In this document: piece after piece, positions 1,742-11,201 of the stretch | Position numbering within the stretch: the stretch's first letter is position 1 | Layout: every line of letters starts with the position of its first letter | Made by a program: the position numbers and the translations under genes | From: a virus | Lineage: Duplodnaviria > Heunggongvirae > Uroviricota > Caudoviricetes | DNA length: 11,201 nt | IMG/VR virus record: IMGVR_UViG_2654587569_000008 | Reading direction: 5' to 3' (one strand) | The notes under the pieces: generated by a model | Database searches by the model: none | What the model saw: only the letters and a program-made list of their open reading frames with translations | Told to the model about the DNA's origin: nothing

Positions 1742-1948
1742 GTGGAAGCAATCAGAAAAATACTTACCCGTCAGGAAGTAAAAAATATTCTGCGCATCAA
1801 GGCAGACAGTTCGCTACAGGACATGATCAACGCCGGAAAATTCCCGAAAGGCTTCAAAATCGGTCTGCGTCGTGTTGGCTGGTATGAAGATGAAGTGCTG
1901 GCCTGGCTGAAAGAGCGCGAGGAAGAAGCGCGCGGAACGGCTGCGTAA
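1742..1948 (+). CDS. alpA: AlpA-family (Phage_AlpA / MerR-like HTH) regulator or excisionase
   Basis: 68-aa ORF with GTG start and GAGG about 10 nt upstream. Sequence ...LTRQEVKNILRIKADSSLQDMINAGKFPKGFKIGLRRVGWYEDEVLAWLKERE fits the AlpA/Vis-type HTH pattern (FP...W...W). Position next to a P4-type int is typical. Confidence 0.8.
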   Translation: MEAIRKILTRQEVKNILRIKADSSLQDMINAGKFPKGFKIGLRRVGWYEDEVLAWLKEREEEARGTAA

Positions 1949-2097
1949 TGGTGTGAGGCGTAACGCGATGAACATAACAAAAAGCGCCCCGTTACCGGAG
2001 CGCCCTTGCGAACAATTAACCTGCTGCGAAAAAAATGGATCAGTGCAGGGGAATTATATCAACCGTGTGGCGAAGCGCCACAATTGCCGGATAACAG

Positions 2098-2127
2098 GCA
2101 AAACAAAGGCCACCCGCTACGGTGGCC
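2098..2127 (-). terminator. Rho-independent terminator for the minus-strand two-gene unit
   Basis: Perfect 7-bp GC-rich stem GGCCACC-(CGCTAC)-GGTGGCC; on the minus strand it is followed by TTTGTTTT. Lies about 80 nt beyond the stop at 2207. Confidence 0.6.
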
Positions 2128-2206
2128 CCTCGACACAAGCTACACGTTATCCCCAACGCATGAGCATCACCAACAATGCCACATTTGCGGCTGGTGGGCA
2201 ATGTGA

Positions 2207-2380
2207 TCAGTCAGATTTGGTTCGTTCCAAGGTTTGCAACGAGAGCTTTTTCCTGTGCTCTTTAAGGAATTTCTCAAGAGCAAACGAACAAGGTGCGAAT
2301 CTTTCTGATTCATGTTCTATCTTTCTGCGCCGTCTTTTCCGTGCCGGTGATAATGTTTTGGTCAATTCTTTATCGGTCAT
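2207..2380 (-). CDS. Hypothetical small highly basic protein (57 aa; alternative start at 2395)
   Basis: Second gene of the minus-strand unit. AGGA about 9 nt upstream of the ATG at 2380. Arg/Lys-rich (ARKRRRRK); no recognisable family. Confidence 0.4.
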   Translation of the reverse strand: MTDKELTKTLSPARKRRRRKIEHESERFAPCSFALEKFLKEHRKKLSLQTLERTKSD

Positions 2381-2437
2381 TGTGTTGTCCTGCATAGCAA
2401 TGCGCCGTAGTTACTCACACCACGGCGCTGGTGATGG

Positions 2438-2617
2438 TTACTCCTGCTCTTTGGCCTTGCGCCGCTGGCGGCGTTTGATCTCGCCTTGCATTGACGTAAT
2501 GATGAATTGTGATGTGCTTTCGCCTGATTCTTTCACTGATTCCATGGCGTTTACTATTTCGTGTGGTACACGAGCCTTTAGAGCTTGTGATTTTGCGTTT
2601 GTTGTACCCGTTGCCAT
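2438..2617 (-). CDS. Small putative DNA-binding regulator (ribbon-helix-helix-like pattern), candidate island repressor
   Basis: 59-aa ORF starting at an internal ATG of the listed 2438..2791 frame, with GAGGAA 7 nt upstream. KSQALKARVPHEIVNAMESVKESGESTSQFIITSM resembles the strand-helix-helix layout of CopG/Arc proteins. Divergent from the early operon with operators in between. Function is inferred, not demonstrated. Confidence 0.45.
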   Translation of the reverse strand: MATGTTNAKSQALKARVPHEIVNAMESVKESGESTSQFIITSMQGEIKRRQRRKAKEQE

Positions 2618-2678
2618 TTCTATTCCTCTGGTGGATTGGTGGGGGACAGTATACACAGAAAAAGCACAAATAAAACTC

Positions 2679-2724
2679 TTGACGTGGGCCACACCTAAAA
2701 CATATAGTGGGCCACACCTTAAAA
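2679..2724 (+). promoter_or_regulatory. Sigma70-like early promoter overlapped by two direct-repeat palindromic operators
   Basis: TTGACG (2679-2684), 18-nt spacer, TATAGT (2703-2708). Two copies of GTGGGCCACACCT(T)AAAA at 2684-2700 and 2707-2724, 23 bp apart, one between -35 and -10 and one over the start region. Core GTGG-G-CCAC is itself a palindrome. Confidence 0.45.
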
Positions 2725-2816
2725 TTATCAAGGCGCATAAATGCAAAGCCCCGCAAGTGTCGTTACCACTCGCAGGGCTTCTAACCACCAACGATAGCAG
2801 AAGTATCGAGGTAGCT

Positions 2817-3023
2817 ATGAGAAATTATACCAGACACCCGCAAGGGCGGGACTCGCACAACCTGAATAAATACATCTGGCGTTTTATCGCCCTGAGCACG
2901 GCACAACCGCGCGTGATTACCATTGAGGCCACCAGCGAACAGGAAGCACGCCAGCAATCTCCTGATGGCTGCGTGATGGTATTCGCCGCCCGTATTCGTC
3001 AGGAGGTGCGCCATGTGCAATAA
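2817..3023 (+). CDS. Hypothetical protein (68 aa), possible first gene of the early operon
   Basis: ATG with GAGGT 5-6 nt upstream; its stop overlaps the next gene's start. It is the 3' part of a long, otherwise implausible plus-strand ORF, so confidence is low. Confidence 0.3.
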   Translation: MRNYTRHPQGRDSHNLNKYIWRFIALSTAQPRVITIEATSEQEARQQSPDGCVMVFAARIRQEVRHVQ

Positions 3024-3252
3024 CCCCCGTCCGGACGCAGCCGCCGAAGCTATCAGAACGCTGATGCACGCGCTGATTGATATTTCATGCACGGCAGCAA
3101 CCGCAGAAAAACACATTACCAGAGAGCCGGAATATACAGGGGCAATAATCCCGCATTCGCTGGCCTACGCACAGCTTACCGCTGATATGGCACTGAATGA
3201 GGCCAGGGCTATCCTGATTGCTGATTGTGAAAATGGGGGGGGTTATGCGTGA
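3013..3252 (+). CDS. Hypothetical protein (79 aa)
   Basis: Strong Shine-Dalgarno AGGAGGTG 5 nt upstream of the ATG. Stop overlaps the next start (ATGCGTGA). Confidence 0.55.
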   Translation: MCNNPRPDAAAEAIRTLMHALIDISCTAATAEKHITREPEYTGAIIPHSLAYAQLTADMALNEARAILIADCENGGGYA

Positions 3253-3478
3253 TGATCGTTTTAATGCCCTGAAACAGGAATTTGATGGCGCACCGGAACA
3301 CGAAGCAGACGCATTGTTGGGCGTTGCTGACATGATAAAAGCCGCATTTTTTCTTATCAATACCAGTGGCTACAGGTCAGAGGGTGCGGAGATTCTCAAT
3401 ATTGCGTCGGACTATGCGGAATATGTTGCAGAGGCGCGTTACAGAAGAAAATTCCCGGAGGTGGTGAGCCATGAATGA
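3245..3478 (+). CDS. Hypothetical protein (77 aa)
   Basis: ATG at 3245 preceded by a G-rich SD-like run; translationally coupled upstream and downstream (ATGAATGA overlap at 3471-3478). Confidence 0.5.
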   Translation: MRDDRFNALKQEFDGAPEHEADALLGVADMIKAAFFLINTSGYRSEGAEILNIASDYAEYVAEARYRRKFPEVVSHE

Positions 3479-3698
3479 AATCCCTTTCGATGTTCTTATT
3501 CATTCTGAAAACGCATTAATCCGCGCAAAGGAAATGGAGGCATTATTACTTAAGTTAATGGAAGTGCCGGAAAATGGCGATGAATCATATCCCATGATGT
3601 TTTCTGCCGTGCACACATTATTAACGCCAGTAATTAACGAATTAAATACGGTGATGGCAATTCACGAGAATAATAAAACGCATCACACCGGAGAATAA
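3471..3698 (+). CDS. Hypothetical protein (75 aa)
   Basis: GGAGGTGG 6-8 nt upstream; start overlaps the previous stop. Confidence 0.5.
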   Translation: MNEIPFDVLIHSENALIRAKEMEALLLKLMEVPENGDESYPMMFSAVHTLLTPVINELNTVMAIHENNKTHHTGE

Positions 3699-3703
3699 AA
3701 ACC

Positions 3704-4003
3704 ATGAAACAGAAAAATTCTGGCTTTACTGCCAGCGGCCTCTCTCGGCCTGAAATCCGCCCCGGCGATATTTTCAAAGATAAATACGGCGGCACTGTAA
3801 CGATTAAAAGCGTGGTGGGACGGTGTGTTACTTACCGCCGTGATGGGTACGGCTATGACTGCGTGATGCCTGTTTATCAGTTCCGGCGTGATTTTTCTCT
3901 GGTACAGAACGCAACACGCGGTAAGCCCACCAGCAGGGAAAAAGCACGGGAAAATATTAAGAAAATAAAAAGCATGCTCAGCGCATCCAGAGGTAAAAAA
4001 TGA
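3704..4003 (+). CDS. Hypothetical protein (99 aa), basic C-terminus
   Basis: GGAGAA upstream of the ATG; its stop overlaps the repA start (ATGA at 4000-4003). Confidence 0.55.
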   Translation: MKQKNSGFTASGLSRPEIRPGDIFKDKYGGTVTIKSVVGRCVTYRRDGYGYDCVMPVYQFRRDFSLVQNATRGKPTSREKARENIKKIKSMLSASRGKK

Positions 4004-5406
4004 AACTGGCACCGAACGTAAAACTGTTACCGAAAGATAAACACACTGAGGCGGTTATTTTTGCGGGTGATAATGCTCACTCCTTTGCAGAACATTACAT
4101 GATTGCACAGGCCAAAAAAGCAGGCGATCCCATCCCTCCGGTTTACCTGGGCCGTTATCAGTTAAGCGAACTGGACAATTTACAGATTGTTGATGAAGGA
4201 CGATACAGAGCAAAGGTCATACGCGCCGGAAACCTGGACGATATGCAGATGCTGACCATTGCCACCAAATTGGCGATCGCAGGTGTCCGGGAAGCGCGGT
4301 TACTTTCAGAGAATTTCGAACTACTGGAGGACTGGAGCGAGCAACTACCGCGGCTTAAAGAAACCTGGGAACGCGGGGAAAGTCTGGTCATGAATGGTGG
4401 AAAGCGAAAAATCACACTTCCCATCTCATGGGGTTCTGAGGGATTCGACGCGCAGCAAAGCTACGTAATTAAGGGGCTTATTCCGGCTGAATCATTATGC
4501 AGCACCTACGGGGCCAGCGGTTCTTATAAATCGTTCCTGGCTATTTCCTGGTCGTGTCATGTTGCCACAGGTATAGCATGGGGAGGCCGCAGGGTAAGTA
4601 AGGGCGCGGTTATTTATATCGCTGGCGAAGGCAGCATGGGCGTAAAACGCCGCGTTAAGGCGTGGGAGATAACCCACGACAAGGTGGTTACAGATTTGTG
4701 CATCATTAACGCGCCTGTTTTCCCTGCATCGCCTGACTATGTGGAGCAGGTTATCAGAACTGCCGGACTTGTTAAGAGCAGAACGGGCGAAAATGTGCGG
4801 CTGATTGTGATAGACACGCTGGCCCGTTGCTTTGGTGGGAATGATGAAAATGATTCCCGTGATATGGGCGCATTTATCCAGGGGTGTGACGCGATAAAGC
4901 AGGCCACAGGGGCCACGGTGCTGGTGGTTCACCATTCCGGCAAGGATGAAACAAAGGGGGCGCGTGGTTCCAGCGCATTCCGTGCCGCACTGGATGCAGA
5001 GTACCGAATCAGCCGGGAAAATTCAGACGTTACAGCACTGGTGGCGGCGTGTACGAAGATGAAGGACGCAGAGGAGCCAAAAGAAAGCGCATACGACCTT
5101 AAAAGCGTGGAGGTGTTTACCGATACAGATGGCGAAGAGATTGTGTCCATGGTGGTGATTGACGTTCCCCGCGCCCCTGCTGAACTGGAACGCATCGAGG
5201 AGGCCGGGAACAAGACGGAAAATCACACGGCTTTATGGGGTTGTATCCGATCACGTATACAGCATGGTGATAAATGCACGATCCCGCTGCTACGTGACGA
5301 CATGAAAAAGCTGGGATATGACACAAAACACCTTAAACGATGGTTAGCAAAACTGGAAAAAGACGGCGTGATTTGCGTCGATGGGGATGATGTTCACCCA
5401 CTGTAA
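4000..5406 (+). CDS. Replication initiator/helicase, RepA-like RecA-fold ATPase (AAA_25-like)
   Basis: 468 aa. Walker A-like GASGSYKS, Walker B-like LIVIDTLARCF, a VLVVHHSGKDE motif, and a basic C-terminal tail that could be a DNA-binding domain. No primase domain recognised. Followed immediately by an iteron array. Confidence 0.85.
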   Translation: MKLAPNVKLLPKDKHTEAVIFAGDNAHSFAEHYMIAQAKKAGDPIPPVYLGRYQLSELDNLQIVDEGRYRAKVIRAGNLDDMQMLTIATKLAIAGVREARLLSENFELLEDWSEQLPRLKETWERGESLVMNGGKRKITLPISWGSEGFDAQQSYVIKGLIPAESLCSTYGASGSYKSFLAISWSCHVATGIAWGGRRVSKGAVIYIAGEGSMGVKRRVKAWEITHDKVVTDLCIINAPVFPASPDYVEQVIRTAGLVKSRTGENVRLIVIDTLARCFGGNDENDSRDMGAFIQGCDAIKQATGATVLVVHHSGKDETKGARGSSAFRAALDAEYRISRENSDVTALVAACTKMKDAEEPKESAYDLKSVEVFTDTDGEEIVSMVVIDVPRAPAELERIEEAGNKTENHTALWGCIRSRIQHGDKCTIPLLRDDMKKLGYDTKHLKRWLAKLEKDGVICVDGDDVHPL

Positions 5407-5610: not shown

Positions 5611-5860
5611 GACAAGAAAAACCAGAGATAAGACAGCACCAAAATATAAAGCGTTAGACATGACAGAGCACGCCTTAAAGGTGGCAATCAGAACGATAGA
5701 CCGCCACGCCGGGGAAGGATACGCGAAAGCACATCCCGAACTGATAAGCGCATTCATGACCACGACGGCGGCAAATTTTGCCACGCTGACAGAGCGGGAG
5801 ATTGCCGAAGCGGAACAGGTAACAACAATCAACGTTAAAACCGGAGAGGTGGAATCATGA
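5609..5860 (+). CDS. Hypothetical protein (83 aa from the ATG at 5609; ORF open from 5477)
   Basis: AGGTGG just upstream of the ATG at 5609; the longer version would be translated across the iterons. Stop overlaps the ssb start (ATGA). Confidence 0.4.
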   Translation: MTRKTRDKTAPKYKALDMTEHALKVAIRTIDRHAGEGYAKAHPELISAFMTTTAANFATLTEREIAEAEQVTTINVKTGEVES

Positions 5861-6279
5861 CAGCACAGATAGCGGCTTACGGGCGGCTGGTGGCTGACCC
5901 GCAGTTAAAGACCACCAGCAAAGGGACACAAATGGCGATGGCGAGTATGGCAGTTCCCCTGCCGTGCAGCCAGGCAGATGACGGAACGGCGACGATGTGG
6001 TTATCTGTCCGGGCGTTTGGCAGACAGGCCGACGCACTGGCAAAACACCACAAAGGCGAACTCCTGAGCGTGGCGGGTAACATGCAGGTGAGCCAGTGGA
6101 CAGGCCAGAACGGCGAAACGCGGCAGGGCTGGCAGGTTATCGCAGACAGTGTAATCAGTGCCAGAACGGCGCGACCGGGCGGCAAAAAAGGTCAACAGGG
6201 GCAGGCTACTGACGCACTGAACAGGGCAAAACAACAGGCGGGAAATGATGATCCGTACGGGGATAACATACCGTTTTAA
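5857..6279 (+). CDS. ssb: Single-stranded DNA-binding protein (SSB)
   Basis: 140 aa. OB-fold region aligns by eye with E. coli SSB (GRLVADPQL..., W..V..FG..A......KG......G.....W....G), and the C-terminus ends DDPYGDNIPF, matching the SSB acidic tip D-D-D-I-P-F. GGAGAGGTGG RBS. Confidence 0.8.
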   Translation: MTAQIAAYGRLVADPQLKTTSKGTQMAMASMAVPLPCSQADDGTATMWLSVRAFGRQADALAKHHKGELLSVAGNMQVSQWTGQNGETRQGWQVIADSVISARTARPGGKKGQQGQATDALNRAKQQAGNDDPYGDNIPF

Positions 6280-6552: not shown

Positions 6553-7593
6553 ATGAGTGATTTATATTCGCCAGCCATGTTAATACAGGTTGTTAATGCC
6601 GAAGATATTCAATGGCAGATTAATTCTTTATTTATAAACCTGTTTTTTAAGCGAGTCGTTACATTTGAGACGCGGGATATTGCGCTTGATATTATTGACG
6701 ATCCAGACATCCCGATGGCTGCATTTTGTTCCCCTATGGTTGGTAGTAAAGTCTCACGCGATGAAGGCTACGAATCAAAAGTAATTCGCCCTGGCTATAT
6801 GAAGCCAAAAAGTAGTATCGACCCAAATAAAATAGCCGTTCGTCAACCAGGCGTATCACCTGAACAATTCAATGCATATTCATCACGCAGTTTCAAAATA
6901 AAGCGAGCGTTAGTAAGACAAGCGCAGGCAATTCGTGCGCGTATTGAGTGGCTTGCTGTTCAGGCGGTTACAACGGGGAAAAATATCATTGAAGGCGATG
7001 GAATTGAACGTTATGAACTGGACTGGAATATAAAACCACAAAATATTATCACGCAGTCCGGCGGCACGGAGTGGAGCGGTAGAGATTTATCAACATTTGA
7101 TCCAAACGATGACATCGAAGAGTACGCAGAAATCAGCGAAGGTACTACAAATATCATCGTAATGGGCCGCAACGTATGGAAAAAATACCGCGCCTTTAAA
7201 GCAGTAAAAGATTGCCTTGATACTCGACGGGGATCTAATTCCGTTCTTGAAACGGCCCTGAAAAATCTTGGGGATTCTGTAAGCTTCAAGGGTTACGTTG
7301 GCGATGTTGCTATTGTGGTATATAGCGGACGTTATACCGACGAGGACGGCAAAGAAAAATATTTCCTTGATCCTGATTTGATGGTGCTTGGCAACACATC
7401 ATTACAGGGCATCGTTGCCTACGGTGGCATTCAGGATCCTGAGTTAATCAGAATGGGGCTGACTAAAGCCGAACTTGCGCCGAAAAATTACATCGTACCA
7501 GGTGATCCGGCTATTGAATATGTGCAGACGCACAGCGCACCGCAACCAATACCGGCCCGCATCAATCGTTTTGTTACCGTTCGCATTGGTTAA
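6553..7593 (+). CDS. Major capsid protein, phage lambda gpE family
   Basis: 346 aa (lambda gpE is 341). Long blocks match gpE as recalled: NIITQSGGTEWS, KAVKDCLDTRRGSNSVLETA, GDVAIVVYSGRY, MVLGNT, PGYMKPK, PKNYIVPGDPA. AAGAGG RBS. Confidence 0.9.
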   Translation: MSDLYSPAMLIQVVNAEDIQWQINSLFINLFFKRVVTFETRDIALDIIDDPDIPMAAFCSPMVGSKVSRDEGYESKVIRPGYMKPKSSIDPNKIAVRQPGVSPEQFNAYSSRSFKIKRALVRQAQAIRARIEWLAVQAVTTGKNIIEGDGIERYELDWNIKPQNIITQSGGTEWSGRDLSTFDPNDDIEEYAEISEGTTNIIVMGRNVWKKYRAFKAVKDCLDTRRGSNSVLETALKNLGDSVSFKGYVGDVAIVVYSGRYTDEDGKEKYFLDPDLMVLGNTSLQGIVAYGGIQDPELIRMGLTKAELAPKNYIVPGDPAIEYVQTHSAPQPIPARINRFVTVRIG

Positions 7594-7602
7594 GGGGGAG
7601 CA

Positions 7603-7944
7603 ATGGCTACTCATTACACTGAACTCATGGCTGGCACTGAAGCACTGGTTACTACGTTGGGGATATTTTCAGCTAATAAAGGGGTAATTCCTGCATTTAC
7701 GCCACTGATGCAAGAAGATGCAACTGGTGCACTGGTGGTATGGGATGGAACGAGCGCAGGCAAAGCTGTTTATGTTTCCGCTGTACAAATCGATACAGCG
7801 ACAAAAACGCAGGCTCAGGTTTATAAAACCGGCGTCTTAAATGTTGATGCTCTGAACTGGCCTGAGTCTGTAACACAACTATCAGCAAAAGTTGCTGCGT
7901 TTGTTGGCTCAGGTATTTCTGTTCAGCCGCTGGCACGTGTGTGA
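7603..7944 (+). CDS. Head decoration protein, phage lambda gpD family
   Basis: 113 aa (gpD is 110). TPLMQEDATGALVVWDGTSAGKAV against gpD [24 protein letters not shown], and VYKTGVLNVDALNWPES against FYKSGTFRYEDVLWPEA. AAGGGGGAG RBS. Gene order is E then D, the reverse of lambda. Confidence 0.8.
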   Translation: MATHYTELMAGTEALVTTLGIFSANKGVIPAFTPLMQEDATGALVVWDGTSAGKAVYVSAVQIDTATKTQAQVYKTGVLNVDALNWPESVTQLSAKVAAFVGSGISVQPLARV

Positions 7945-7953
7945 GGTACGAGA

Positions 7954-8298
7954 ATGATTGAAAGAGATAGTCAGCTACGAGAGCTATTAGATATCGATGA
8001 CAAAATGAGTTTAAGCGAGCGCCTTGTTGATATGGATCAGGTAGTGGAGCTTACAACCCTTAGCCGTCGCACATTGCTAAACCTTGAGGCTCGCGGAGAG
8101 TTCCCCGAACGCGTACAGGTTACGAAAGGGCGCAAGGCATGGTATTTAAGCGAGGTTGTTGCGTGGATTAACAACATTCCGCGCGCATCAAATTATTGCC
8201 TTGTTCCCACCCCCGAAAAACCTGATGCGGCGTTATGCCTCAAGATTGAACGCGCCAGGCGTAATGCCCTGAAAGGACGCAATAAGTTGATTGGTTGA
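7954..8298 (+). CDS. Second AlpA-family HTH protein inside the late module
   Basis: 114 aa. VVELTTLSRRTLLNLEARGEFPERVQVTKGRKAWYLSEVVAWINN fits the AlpA/excisionase-type HTH. GAGG RBS. Confidence 0.7.
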   Translation: MIERDSQLRELLDIDDKMSLSERLVDMDQVVELTTLSRRTLLNLEARGEFPERVQVTKGRKAWYLSEVVAWINNIPRASNYCLVPTPEKPDAALCLKIERARRNALKGRNKLIG

Positions 8299-8319: not shown

Positions 8320-8400
8320 CTGGCGGGTCCTTTCCGGCGATCCGGCAGGCTACGGGGCGGCGACCTTGCGTATTTTCGCTATTTATGAGCCTTTTCGGGT
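8320..8400. other. Lambda-like cos site (cosQ, cosN, I2-like segment)
   Basis: GGGTCCTTTCCGGCGATCCGGCAGGCTACGGGGCGGCGACCTTGCGTATTTTCGCTATTTATGAGCCTTTTCGGG is nearly identical to the lambda/cosmid cos sequence as recalled. The 12-nt cohesive-end sequence GGGCGGCGACCT is at 8355-8366. Confidence 0.8.
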
Positions 8401-8499
8401 TGGTGGTGGTGGTTTTGTTTTTCGCTCTATCTCTATGAATAAAAAGGGAAAGATAACACCAACACACCAACCTGAAACCTTAACTAAGTGGGGATATTG

Positions 8500-9042
8500 A
8501 TGAAATCGCACCTGATGAACAAAAAAACTATGGCGCAAAGCTGCCGCGTAAGTGCGACAGCGTTCGACAAGTGGGGAGTAACTCCCGTTGAGCGTAAAGG
8601 CCGTGAGGCGTTTTATGATGTTGCTAGCGTGATAGACAATAGGGTTAACAATGCAATTAACCAGCTTACAAACGACAAAGGCGAGATTGATGATGATGAA
8701 CTTTTACGCGTAAGAATCAGATTAATGACGGCCCAGGCGGAAGCGCAGGAACTTAAAAACGAGCGCGAACGCGGCGAGGTGATTGATACAAAGTTTTGCA
8801 TCTACGCGATTTCAAAACTAGCGAGTCAGATTTCATCAATCATGGACAGCCTCCCGCTCACAATGCAAAGGCGCTTTCCCGATATAAGGCCGTATATGCT
8901 GGATGAACTAAAAAGGGAAATAGCCAAAGCATGTAACGCATGTGCAAGACTTGACGAAAACCTGCCACAGATACTGGCTGATTACCTGATGGAAACTACC
9001 GGAAACGCGCCTGAGAAGTTGCTACAGAACAAAGGCGAGTAA
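8500..9042 (+). CDS. Terminase small subunit, lambda Nu1 family
   Basis: About 180 aa from the ATG at 8500 (ORF listed from the GTG at 8488). C-terminal two-thirds align by eye with Nu1 (RLMTAQAEAQELKNERERGEVIDTKFCIYAISKLASQISSIMDSLPLTMQRRFPDI against Nu1 RLTRAQADAQELKNARDSAEVVETAFCTFVLSRIAGEIASILDGLPLSVQRRFPEL). N-terminal DNA-binding region is related but more diverged. About 135 bp downstream of cosN, as in lambda. Confidence 0.85.
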   Translation: MKSHLMNKKTMAQSCRVSATAFDKWGVTPVERKGREAFYDVASVIDNRVNNAINQLTNDKGEIDDDELLRVRIRLMTAQAEAQELKNERERGEVIDTKFCIYAISKLASQISSIMDSLPLTMQRRFPDIRPYMLDELKREIAKACNACARLDENLPQILADYLMETTGNAPEKLLQNKGE

Positions 9043-10715: not shown

Positions 10716-11201
10716 TCAGAACGTCCAGACTACACCCGCCTGAGTTGTGCTGCTTTCTTCACAGGAGAAACGACTATCGATACCGAGCGTCAGGCCCGTC
10801 AATGTTTGCTCAAAGCCAGCTCCCGCATCAGTGTTCACGCTGTTGCGGCTGTTAATTGCCGAACTCCACATCGCCGTATCGTAATTAACGCCTTTTACGC
10901 TACCAAGACGCCCACGCACGGTGTCCAGTTCTGCATCAAATACCAGCGGTTGTGCTGCCGCCATATTCAGCACATCCGTGGTTGAAGGGGGCATTTGTAC
11001 GCGATTCTCTGCGAGACTCCAGCTATGGTTGCCATTATCCAGCAAGGTATATTCATACGTACTGATATCAACAACGCTTCCGGCATTGCCCAACGTAAAT
11101 GCCGCATCACCGCGCCCTCCTTTAATCGTGGGATCATTCGCCGCGCCATAAACCTGTAGCACTCCATTATTGATCGTAGTCTGATTTACCGCGCCACCCA
11201 T
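10716..11201 (-). CDS. 3' part of a gene running off the window: autotransporter-like passenger/junction fragment, apparently without the beta-barrel
   Basis: N-terminus lies beyond 11201. Passenger-like repeats (TINNGVLQVYGAAN...), a junction-like motif (TVRGRLGSV...AMWSS...GAGFEQTLTGLTLGIDSRF), then a stop after ...GVVWTF, only about 20 residues into what would be a ~250-aa barrel. Family assignment is pattern-based and tentative. Confidence 0.45.
   Translation of the reverse strand: MGGAVNQTTINNGVLQVYGAANDPTIKGGRGDAAFTLGNAGSVVDISTYEYTLLDNGNHSWSLAENRVQMPPSTTDVLNMAAAQPLVFDAELDTVRGRLGSVKGVNYDTAMWSSAINSRNSVNTDAGAGFEQTLTGLTLGIDSRFSCEESSTTQAGVVWTF

Follow-up and report, generated by a model that had tools for sequence, protein, structure and literature searches.

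The DNA examined here is a stretch of 11,201 nucleotides from the IMG/VR record IMGVR_UViG_2654587569_000008, referred to below, at its full length, as the window. Between positions 2817 and 4003 it carries a run of small open reading frames (ORFs) directly upstream of repA, the replicase gene of an integrated phage satellite. Our results show that these are not a set of orphan genes but the conserved early operon of the phage-inducible chromosomal islands (PICIs) of Escherichia coli and of the capsid-forming PICIs (cf-PICIs). Probably, the satellite is an enterobacterial one of the PICI type and the run is its early, replication-proximal operon, organised like the left operon of P4 and the immI operon of P1 and controlled by the mechanism proposed below.

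Composition of the early operon

Five ORFs of 68, 79, 77, 75 and 99 amino acids (aa) had been predicted in this interval, and all of them are found where they were placed, coupled to each other and co-oriented with repA (4000-5406, plus strand), with no terminator between them; a scan for terminator-like sites on the plus strand between 2817 and 4200 found none. ORF1 and ORF2 overlap by 11 nt, ORF2 and ORF3 by 8 nt (ATGCGTGA), and ORF3 and ORF4 also by 8 nt (ATGAATGA), while ORF4 and ORF5 are separated by a gap of 5 nt and ORF5 overlaps repA by 4 nt (ATGA). Shine-Dalgarno-like motifs were observed for ORF1 (GAGG), ORF2 (AGGAGG), ORF4 (GGAGG), ORF5 (GGAG) and repA (GAGG). The good ribosome-binding sites described for the whole set are therefore clear at four of the five ORFs, but ORF3 is preceded by a run of eight G residues only. 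ORF1, which is Icd-like, stands first in a translationally coupled chain that reaches repA. In homologous loci the median ratios of non-synonymous to synonymous substitution rates (dN/dS) for ORF1 to ORF5 are 0.28, 0.38, 0.31, 0.20 and 0.37, respectively, and purifying selection at this level (0.20-0.38) indicates that the ORFs are genes and did not arise by chance.

Other parts of the original prediction have to be revised. ORF2 and ORF3 are in reality one gene split by a G8 tract at 3235-3242, which makes four genes out of five ORFs, and the ATGCGTGA overlap reported between them, although present, is a by-product of that frameshift. Nor would continuous translation start at 2817, since ORF1 is the 3' end of a 356-codon frame and the translation unit would begin at alpA. 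It had also been stated that none of the proteins matches a family, but ORF1 belongs to the Icd-like family NF033153, ORF5 to the Pfam family DUF4222, and all five match PHROG families; the sensitive profile searches suggested at that time placed ORF1 and ORF5 in these named families and ORF2 to ORF4 in PHROG families only.

The order ORF1-ORF2-ORF3-(one small ORF)-ORF5-replicase is held in 80 IMG/VR contigs, as far as each contig extends, and in these contigs each operon gene exists as several discrete alleles that are freely recombined. Parts of the region, searched with a 1.7-kb query, match 1,894 of the 5,426 complete E. coli genomes (35%), and the module is therefore not rare. The closest full-length relative (82.7% identity) is a capsid-forming PICI adjoining the ilv operon. 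Among 50,697 phage records, no match to 2400-4100 was obtained by megablast; tblastn of ORF5 against phages gave none either, and the single record matched by ORF1 in tblastn is an 'induced prophage' that is itself cf-PICI-like. The module is satellite-specific, and the bona fide phages of INPHARED are without it. A scan of genome contigs based on the DUF4222 alignment recovered only 2 loci, the peptide patterns derived from it being too narrow.

Profile and pairwise matches establish ORF1 (2817-3023, plus strand; 68 aa), the leader cistron, as a protein of the Icd/Kil family, corresponding to a Kil-like short form. Residues 19-62 match NCBIfam NF033153 with 70.3 bits (cut-off 25; E 9.9e-20), phrog_6196 is matched at E 7e-44, and BLASTP aligned the protein with residues 11-56 of P1 Icd at 35% identity (E 8e-8), with the WRF, E-x-EAR, PDG and F-x-AR motifs kept between ORF1 and the Icd core. 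Residues 12-51 of P1 Icd have been described as the core that binds FtsZ and blocks Z-ring formation (PMC11897509). Selection on ORF1 is specific to its frame, with a dN/dS of 0.19, compared with 1.46 and 0.74 when the other two frames are read. An ORF of 111 aa on the minus strand (2781-3116), which stops shortly before the leader hairpin described below, was considered as an antisense gene and rejected, as stops close its frame in other leader types and the selection observed there fits the plus frame of ORF1.

ORF2 (3013-3252, plus strand; 79 aa; phrog_5146) represents the N-terminal half, a helical hairpin, and ORF3 (3245-3478, plus strand; 77 aa; phrog_24341) the C-terminal half of the same protein. 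The first half of phrog_2512, a profile of 154 positions, matches ORF2 and its second half matches ORF3, and a search with the two products concatenated gave E. coli proteins of 150-156 aa in at least 120 clusters, with identities of 71-97% and ~99% coverage. In many relatives ORF2/ORF3 is a single gene of 154-155 aa, and it is the G8 homopolymer, located on the plus strand at the junction of the two modules, that causes the split in the window. Fused proteins read CENGG-VMRDDR (58 clusters), CENGGG-VMRDDR (49 clusters) or CENGGGG-V (1 cluster) at this junction, corresponding to tracts of G7, G10 and G13. Among 81 IMG/VR occurrences, the tract was G7 in 23, G8 in 34, G9 in 18, G10 in 4 and G11 in 2, so that only one third of them are in frame, and its length differs between identical 250-nt flanks in six groups; the G8 allele is present in at least five independent assemblies. 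The ATG of ORF3 is an internal methionine in fused alleles and comes right after the G run. Many distant relatives are stand-alone N-halves (profile positions 1-77) or C-halves starting exactly at position 78, and the low-confidence model of the fused protein (predicted local distance difference test score of 60) shows two helical hairpins with a disordered linker at the junction. From these data we conclude that the two modules encoded by ORF2/ORF3 make up a protein able to work in either state, fused or split, and that the tract in its linker is prone to slippage. The family is a narrow one, with 63 clusters at 50% identity among 1.84 billion representatives.

ORF4 (3471-3698, plus strand; 75 aa; phrog_2196, E 1e-9) reads as helical and occupies a conserved one-gene slot, exactly one small ORF being found between ORF3 and ORF5 in 69 of 73 loci. 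Three allele families fill this slot: types of 77 aa and of 68-69 aa visibly resemble ORF4, the ORF4-like types having HSENAL, LLxPVIxEL and a C-terminal HTGE in common, and the third is an unrelated type of 66 aa. A second G tract (…HAEQG(G)DLF…) varies in the 68-69 aa allele, with truncated variants of 47-52 aa in several contigs, which means that homopolymer slippage affects more than one gene of the operon. Pfam and PHROG searches detected no similarity of ORF2 to ORF4 to ANT, Bro, KilA-N, Ash or Rha domains.

ORF5 (3704-4003, plus strand; 99 aa) belongs to the DUF4222/RgdR family, covering the whole 53-position profile of PF13973 (E 6e-24; 83.9 bits against a threshold of 27), and is 66.7% identical to RgdR/ECs1581 of enterohaemorrhagic E. 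coli (EHEC) CP-933C over residues 1-99 (E 1e-44). RgdR activates LEE1 and type III secretion, represses motility, alters Congo-red binding and binds DNA without sequence specificity, and it was named after an RGD motif at residues 20-22 for which a role has been described (PMC3378721). This tripeptide is absent from ORF5, which has P20-G21-D22, and the strain from which the window comes may be without LEE. The ORF5 model consists of an SH3/Tudor-like barrel (residues 23-68) and a basic C-terminal helix; its viral structure matches are DUF1653-like proteins, with scores that are generic for small barrels, and contact of the modelled protein with RNA polymerase or DNA is to be taken as a lead and not as a result. 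Homology of ORF5 to P4 Cnr was considered and rejected (hhalign probability 0.1%).

The chain ends in a helicase-type replicase (AAA_25; PF13481, E 4e-42; phrog_2850). Its residues 1-122 (window 4000-4365) are ~45% identical to primase-type PICI replicases, represented by loci L008 (4601-4980) and L007 (9938-10300), and this N-terminal segment of ~120 aa, which no Pfam family covers, is present in all loci, whatever the catalytic domain. The segment may bind the origin or a partner protein. PADLOC-DB 2.0 gave no match at E up to 1 for ORF1, fused ORF2/3, ORF4, ORF5, RepA or the two minus-strand proteins described below (YlcI-like and 57-aa), and PDB sequence searches returned nothing useful for ORF1, ORF5, ORF2+3, ORF4 or the YlcI-like protein.

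Regulatory DNA between alpA and the Icd-like cistron

Upstream of its ATG the frame of ORF1 remains open as far as alpA (1742-1948, plus strand; Pfam Phage_AlpA, E 4.5e-8), which encodes an AlpA-family regulator. In the window this gives a 356-codon Eta-like open frame (1953-3023, plus strand) that begins with a GTG 5 nt past the alpA stop, runs antisense to both minus-strand genes of the region, spans an internal promoter and has the 68 codons of ORF1 as its last, so that a long and a nested short form are found here as in P4 eta/kil. In P4, the long Eta starts beside the alpA homologue, the short Kil is nested and a promoter lies inside the long gene, and the published model holds that eta/kil are coupled to the alpA homologue and that their translation prevents termination (PMC10111431). 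In a set of 60 distinct relatives, the median open length upstream of ORF1 is 283 codons in the ORF1 frame, compared with 7 and 10 in the others, and the ORF1 frame stays open for at least 150 codons in 38 of the 60 loci, a length that neither control frame reaches in any (0/60 and 0/60). The distance from the alpA stop to the first start codon is at most ~20 nt in elements with the window-type AlpA and 65-85 nt in several others. For the extension segment 1953-2204 the dN/dS is 0.68, against 0.58 and 0.70 in the other frames, which reveals no frame-specific amino-acid constraint, and the promoter/operator DNA spanned by the long frame is unrelated between element types. The long frame is kept stop-free but is not conserved in sequence, and this fits the published P4 eta/kil model.

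Gene callers disagree on 1953-3023, which appears as an ORF of 351 aa in some assemblies and of 68 aa in RefSeq. The same stretch is annotated as 324 aa in vB_KppS-Ant and as a separate ORF of 247 aa in Sakai, with corresponding stretches at 7969-9024 in L002, 8578-9552 in L007 and 2732-3475 in L008, and in cluster P0081 (219 aa) the Icd-like protein is fused to ORF2/3. A long frame with ORF1 nested in it accounts for the lengths annotated for Icd-like proteins, which go from 65 to more than 350 aa.

The ORF1 leader contains an inverted repeat with 14-bp arms (2746-2780), between the early promoter-like site and the ORF1 start. Of 51 leader variants, 48 have a hairpin that folds more stably as minus-strand than as plus-strand RNA (mean -24.6 vs -17.8 kcal/mol), and in the variants printed the stem is followed on that strand by a T-rich tract (mean T fraction 0.50 in 10 nt). 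An alignment of 25 diverse variants showed compensatory double changes in 8 of the 13 predicted pairs, and 96.9% of the cells pair; shuffles give 85.6%, with none of 500 attaining the true figure, and sliding the partner columns gives 38-57%. Moreover, 44 G.U cells become C.A mismatches on the plus strand, where pairing falls from 96.9% to 83.2%. Minus-strand stability, covariation and the G.U bias together indicate that the hairpin is the terminator of a leftward transcript.

On the minus strand, ~44 nt upstream of the hairpin and inside codons 3-6 of ORF1, TGGTATAAT (2832-2824) is a perfect extended -10 element and the predicted antisense promoter; two extended -10 matches were observed in the window, against 0.39 expected. 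The distance from the ATG to a TATGAT or TATAAT hexamer is constant in 47 of 51 leader variants, and the -10 positions that do vary, the free 'n' of TGn and position 4 of the hexamer, are tolerated by the consensus yet change the protein (T/I, H/Y). The predicted cis-antisense RNA bounded by this promoter and terminator is ~80 nt long (about 82; 2818 to 2737, minus strand), would be cis-encoded and fully complementary to the Shine-Dalgarno sequence and start codon of ORF1, and folds at -40.8 kcal/mol (z = -6.6). Its promoter, its complementarity to a ribosome-binding site and its covarying terminator are the sequence features of cis-antisense regulators of the sar and Sok type.

No Rfam family matches the predicted antisense RNA, and RNA annotation was present under none of the 25 E. 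coli matches listed. Neither C4 (RF01695) nor isrK (RF01394) was matched in 1940-3030 with the threshold set at E 10, and three related PICIs (Sakai Sp7, H1 and vB_KppS-Ant) lacked matches too. P4, used as positive control, gave 74.9 bits for C4 and 60.8 bits for isrK, and as the control detected both, a C4/CI or isrK RNA in the leader was rejected. As Rfam finds C4 and isrK in P4 but in neither the window nor these three PICIs, the RNA of this lineage, if any, is a different one.

The only plus-strand promoter-like site found in the scan is a sigma-70-like early promoter, TTGACG-18-TATAGT (2679-2708; 10/12 matches to the consensus), located inside the long frame. Two 22-nt direct repeats of family D1 (GTGGGCCACACCT...; 2684-2705 and 2707-2728), 23 nt apart, overlap its -35 and -10 elements and are putative operators. 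A TTGAC-type -35 followed by repeats recurs at the same place in relatives, and other elements have different direct or inverted repeats at this position. Divergent from the operon lies the gene of a small protein of the YlcI/YnfO family (2438-2617, minus strand; 59 aa; NF041551, E 2.8e-18). The promoter/operator region is common to 99 of 99 pairs that have the same YlcI allele and to 0 of 1,381 pairs with different alleles (Spearman rho 0.51), whereas for the equally adjacent ORF1 allele rho is 0.07, and in 40 pairs with the same YlcI allele and a different ORF1 allele the region is still common. This co-segregation is the pattern expected of a repressor-operator immunity cassette, in which the YlcI-like protein is a candidate for the cognate repressor. 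AlpA is unlikely to be the operator-binding protein, because AlpA proteins 99% identical to each other occur with unrelated repeats. A ribbon-helix-helix reading of the YlcI-like protein was dropped as a claim, the PDB search having returned nothing useful. From the hairpin to the ATG, the leader segment 2781-2816 (CTAACCACCAACGATAGC...GAGG) is near-invariant among elements with differing operators and ORF alleles, and the conserved hairpin and the CTAACCACCAACG leader appear to be where recombination joins the immunity cassette to the operon.

Downstream of the YlcI-like gene, the minus strand codes for a small basic protein of 57 aa (2207-2380; dN/dS 0.37), which was called as a gene in loci L002 and L006, has minus-strand homologues in most loci and gave no family match. 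Two minus-strand terminator-like hairpins (2130-2105 and 2007-1980) follow beyond it, and the second extended -10 match, TGATATAAT, is at 2061-2053 on the same strand. This gene, both hairpins and TGATATAAT are embedded antisense in the long Eta-like frame.

Proposed mechanism and rival explanations

AlpA has been described as the activator of E. coli PICIs, which switches on the genes downstream of it (PMC6092414). We propose that in the quiescent island the YlcI-like protein would repress the internal early promoter and that the antisense RNA of ~80 nt would mask the Icd-like cistron at its ribosome-binding site. Translation of the entire chain down to repA would then be prevented, because every downstream cistron is proposed to be translationally coupled. 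Once alpA is induced by a helper phage, RNA started at the alpA promoter would be translated from alpA without interruption through the Eta-like frame, and this read-through would bypass the masked ORF1 start and allow translation of ORF2 to ORF5 and repA. The Icd-like product would then block FtsZ-dependent division and RepA would replicate the island, while the RgdR-like protein may be a low-specificity partner of DNA or RNA polymerase.

Several observations weigh against this proposal. The antisense RNA, the translation of the long frame and the repression by the YlcI-like protein are all predictions. ORF1 is only 35% identical to P1 Icd and its pairwise match to the P4 protein is non-significant (E 0.17), so that its targeting of FtsZ is an extrapolation. 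The long frame shares its third codon positions with the two antisense genes, and for this reason fewer stops are expected over 354 of its 1,071 nt; the view that the 356-codon frame is a mere artefact of these genes is overruled by the open-frame comparison of the 60 relatives. In 22 of the 60, including Sakai Sp7, the ORF1 frame is open for less than 150 codons upstream, and the long form is therefore not universal. The antisense -10 sits in coding sequence, where the protein may explain part of its conservation. Finally, Pfam, PDB and PADLOC searches gave no functional pointer for ORF2 to ORF4.

The operon could instead be mainly an abortive-infection or superinfection-exclusion module, triggered by a phage protein, in which the Icd-like protein, helped by the small proteins and the replicase, arrests or kills the cell to the benefit of the population. 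According to a preprint, growth of ECOR61 stops when phage orf24 is expressed, the suppressor insertions recovered there were in an Icd-like gene and the next two small genes, and removal of the Icd-like gene abolished the effect (Silas et al., bioRxiv 10.1101/2023.04.06.535777). The sizes of these small genes and their overlaps of 8 nt and 1 nt match ECs1577-1579 of Sakai Sp7, and defence functions are common in satellites (PMC13612085). However, none of the operon proteins has a PADLOC match, the middle genes of ECOR61 are an allele set different from ORF2-4 of the window, and the ECOR61 locus was identified by gene sizes and overlaps and not by sequence. The arrest could equally be satellite induction, since uncontrolled replication of EcCICFT073 harms growth too (PMC6092414), and we regard a primary role in exclusion as somewhat unlikely.

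A role of ORF2 to ORF5 as replication accessory proteins, such as initiator cofactors or copy-number regulators like P4 Cnr, is suggested by the position of ORF5, which overlaps repA by ATGA. A DUF4222 gene precedes the replicase in every locus that reaches that far and in Sakai Sp7, P4 cnr occupies the equivalent position, and the N-terminal domain of ~120 aa common to all replicase types could be the partner. RgdR, moreover, binds DNA without sequence specificity (PMC3378721). We nevertheless find this role unlikely. ORF5 is without similarity to Cnr in the hhalign comparison given above, and the same ORF1-5 alleles combine with replicases of the helicase, primase and DUF927 types. Furthermore, the effects of RgdR on LEE1, motility and Congo-red binding are seen when it is expressed by itself in trans and the replicase is not supplied (PMC3378721).

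Still less probable is a role of ORF2/3 and ORF4 directed at the helper phage, be it anti-repression or interference, in the manner of P1 Ant or P4 epsilon (Ash). Their place in the operon would suit such a role, as icd is followed by ant1/ant2 in P1 and the Icd-like ORF by epsilon in P4; some E. coli elements carry this leader with its hairpin in front of an 'ash family protein', and Enterobacter PICIs and cf-PICIs pair Icd with AntA/AntB, BRO or Ash proteins (PMC13612085). The slot also holds several unrelated allele families, as expected of helper-matched proteins. Against this, ORF2-4 show none of the ANT, Bro, KilA-N, Ash or Rha similarities, their family is confined to the 63 clusters mentioned above, and the element has no known helper phage.

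That ORF2/ORF3 is a decaying pseudogene and part of the operon non-functional cargo of a degenerate island is very improbable: 54 of the 81 tract lengths are out of frame, near the expectation for random drift, and the second G tract yields truncated variants of the other ORF4 allele, but both halves are under purifying selection (dN/dS 0.38 and 0.31), the ORF3 ATG is conserved right after a G run that can serve as Shine-Dalgarno sequence, distant relatives encode the halves as separate genes with the break exactly at 77/78, and the G8 allele recurs in independent assemblies.

Returning to an early operon of P4-like and P1-like organisation, a wider reading can be put forward, tentatively and with more doubt than confidence. 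In this reading, a YlcI/YnfO repressor with element-specific operators, a cis-antisense RNA of ~80 nt and a stop-free translate-through frame coupled to alpA would jointly silence a large PICI/cf-PICI lineage, models related to CP-933C included; the G tract would be a genuine contingency switch between fused and split proteins, and the unit as a whole would be previously undescribed. If true, this would answer the question of what represses these islands, with the eta/kil logic of P4 rebuilt around a different RNA. For the zone from alpA to the replicase, immunity functions like those of P4 have been noted before in general terms (PMC10111431). What our analysis adds is the Icd/Kil domain as a fourth shared component and strong comparative evidence for an Eta-like read-through frame, together with a candidate YlcI repressor-operator cassette, a candidate antisense RNA and the G-tract polymorphism, the last four being comparative and predictive. 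In addition, the EHEC virulence regulator RgdR can be seen in its native setting, as a core early satellite gene translationally coupled to the replicase, and ORF2-4 as a narrow, satellite-specific set of small helical proteins.

The satellite and its relation to known systems

The original prediction took the window for a phage satellite, and this is confirmed by the Pfam matches and the ORF list, which describe an integrated satellite of 11 kb with int, alpA, replicase, ssb and capsid E/D/Nu1-like genes. The element follows the layout of Gram-negative PICIs (Fillol-Salom 2018; four-zone scheme in PMC10111431), with int (1-1242) and alpA co-oriented at the left end, the regulatory zone, the replicase with ssb (5857-6279) and the late genes. 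The late module comprises a lambda gpE-like major capsid gene (6553-7593; PF03864), a gpD-like decoration gene (7603-7944; PF02924) and a Nu1-like small terminase gene (8488-9042; PF07471) only, and is without portal, protease and large terminase. Between the decoration and small terminase genes there is a second AlpA-family gene (7954-8298; 114 aa; PF05930), which may be a regulator of the late module. The E-type capsid gene recalls the ~11-kb 'capE' PICIs that are embedded in helpers (PMC10111431), but the element in the window is chromosomal, at yejM/narP, and the yejM-narP interval carries identical copies of it in several E. coli assemblies.

In the interval from the second alpA-like gene to the small terminase gene, at 8392-8478, lies a near-perfect palindrome of ~85 nt, rich in GGTGG/CCACC, which gave spurious microRNA matches in Rfam. 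It could serve in packaging, as an origin or as a terminator. A truncated pertactin/autotransporter-like ORF (10716-11201, minus strand; PF03212), located past the element's right end, is probably flanking chromosomal or remnant DNA.

Among known loci, ECs1577-ECs1582 of Sakai Sp7/CP-933C (O-island 51) has the same order of an Icd-like gene, small ORFs, a 99-aa DUF4222 gene and a replicase, joined by an ATGA overlap, with 67% identity in ORF5, 51% in ORF1 and the same leader hairpin. It differs in its middle genes, which are other alleles (61, 63 and 80 aa) in place of the two-module ORF2/3 and ORF4, in ORF5, where the RGD of RgdR at residues 20-22 corresponds to the PGD of the window, and in its Icd-like gene, which is not fused in frame to the upstream ORF. 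Its replicase is of the primase type, and its late module is an HK97-type capsid set, unlike the lambda E/D/Nu1-like genes found here. The 'prophage-encoded superinfection exclusion system' of ECOR61, with six linked genes, likewise consists of an Icd-like gene, small overlapping genes and a primase. Compared by sizes and product names only, its two small downstream genes (61 and 63 codons; overlaps of 8 nt and 1 nt) equal ECs1577-1579, and because of this agreement in gene sizes and overlaps the locus is very probably a sister allele of the operon.

The likeness to P4 is to its left operon, whose order is vis(orf88) - eta/kil - epsilon - orf151 - cnr(orf106) - alpha. In both elements the ORF after the AlpA/Vis-type gene codes for an Icd-like domain (NF033153) at its C-terminal end and precedes small overlapping ORFs and a replicase, which in P4 is the alpha primase. 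The P4 ORF between vis and epsilon, historically the 'cI gene product', matches NF033153 with 73.9 bits (E 8e-21) and is the eta/kil gene pair (PMC10111431). The two systems differ in their RNAs, since P4 has a C4-type CI RNA and an isrK-type seqA and the window has no Rfam match to either, whereas the element in the window has a divergent YlcI/YnfO gene with linked operators and a predicted RNA that would be truly cis-antisense. The element also lacks an epsilon/Ash homologue, its ORF5 is unrelated to Cnr, and its replicase is a RepA-type helicase and not a primase-helicase like alpha.

The immI region of P1 (c4 RNA - icd - ant1/ant2) resembles the operon in having a first cistron of the Icd family whose stop overlaps the next start, icd overlapping ant1 by ATGA. 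C4 RNA represses icd at its ribosome-binding site, and a small RNA acting on the ribosome-binding site of the icd cistron is also what we propose for the window. C4, however, is encoded upstream on the same strand and processed from the operon transcript, while the RNA of the window is predicted on the opposite strand; the downstream genes of the window are not Ant homologues and its operon ends in a replicase.

The predicted RNA finds its closest parallels in the sar RNA of P22 immI and in type I pairs such as hok/sok, where a short cis-antisense RNA starts inside or beside its target gene and covers the ribosome-binding site of the target. These RNAs end in a strong terminator, and their targets either harm the cell or unlock lytic functions. 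The RNA of the window has no sequence or Rfam relationship to them. Its target would differ from theirs in leading a long coupled chain with a replicase as the final cistron, and the translated frame upstream of the target would offer a route round the block.

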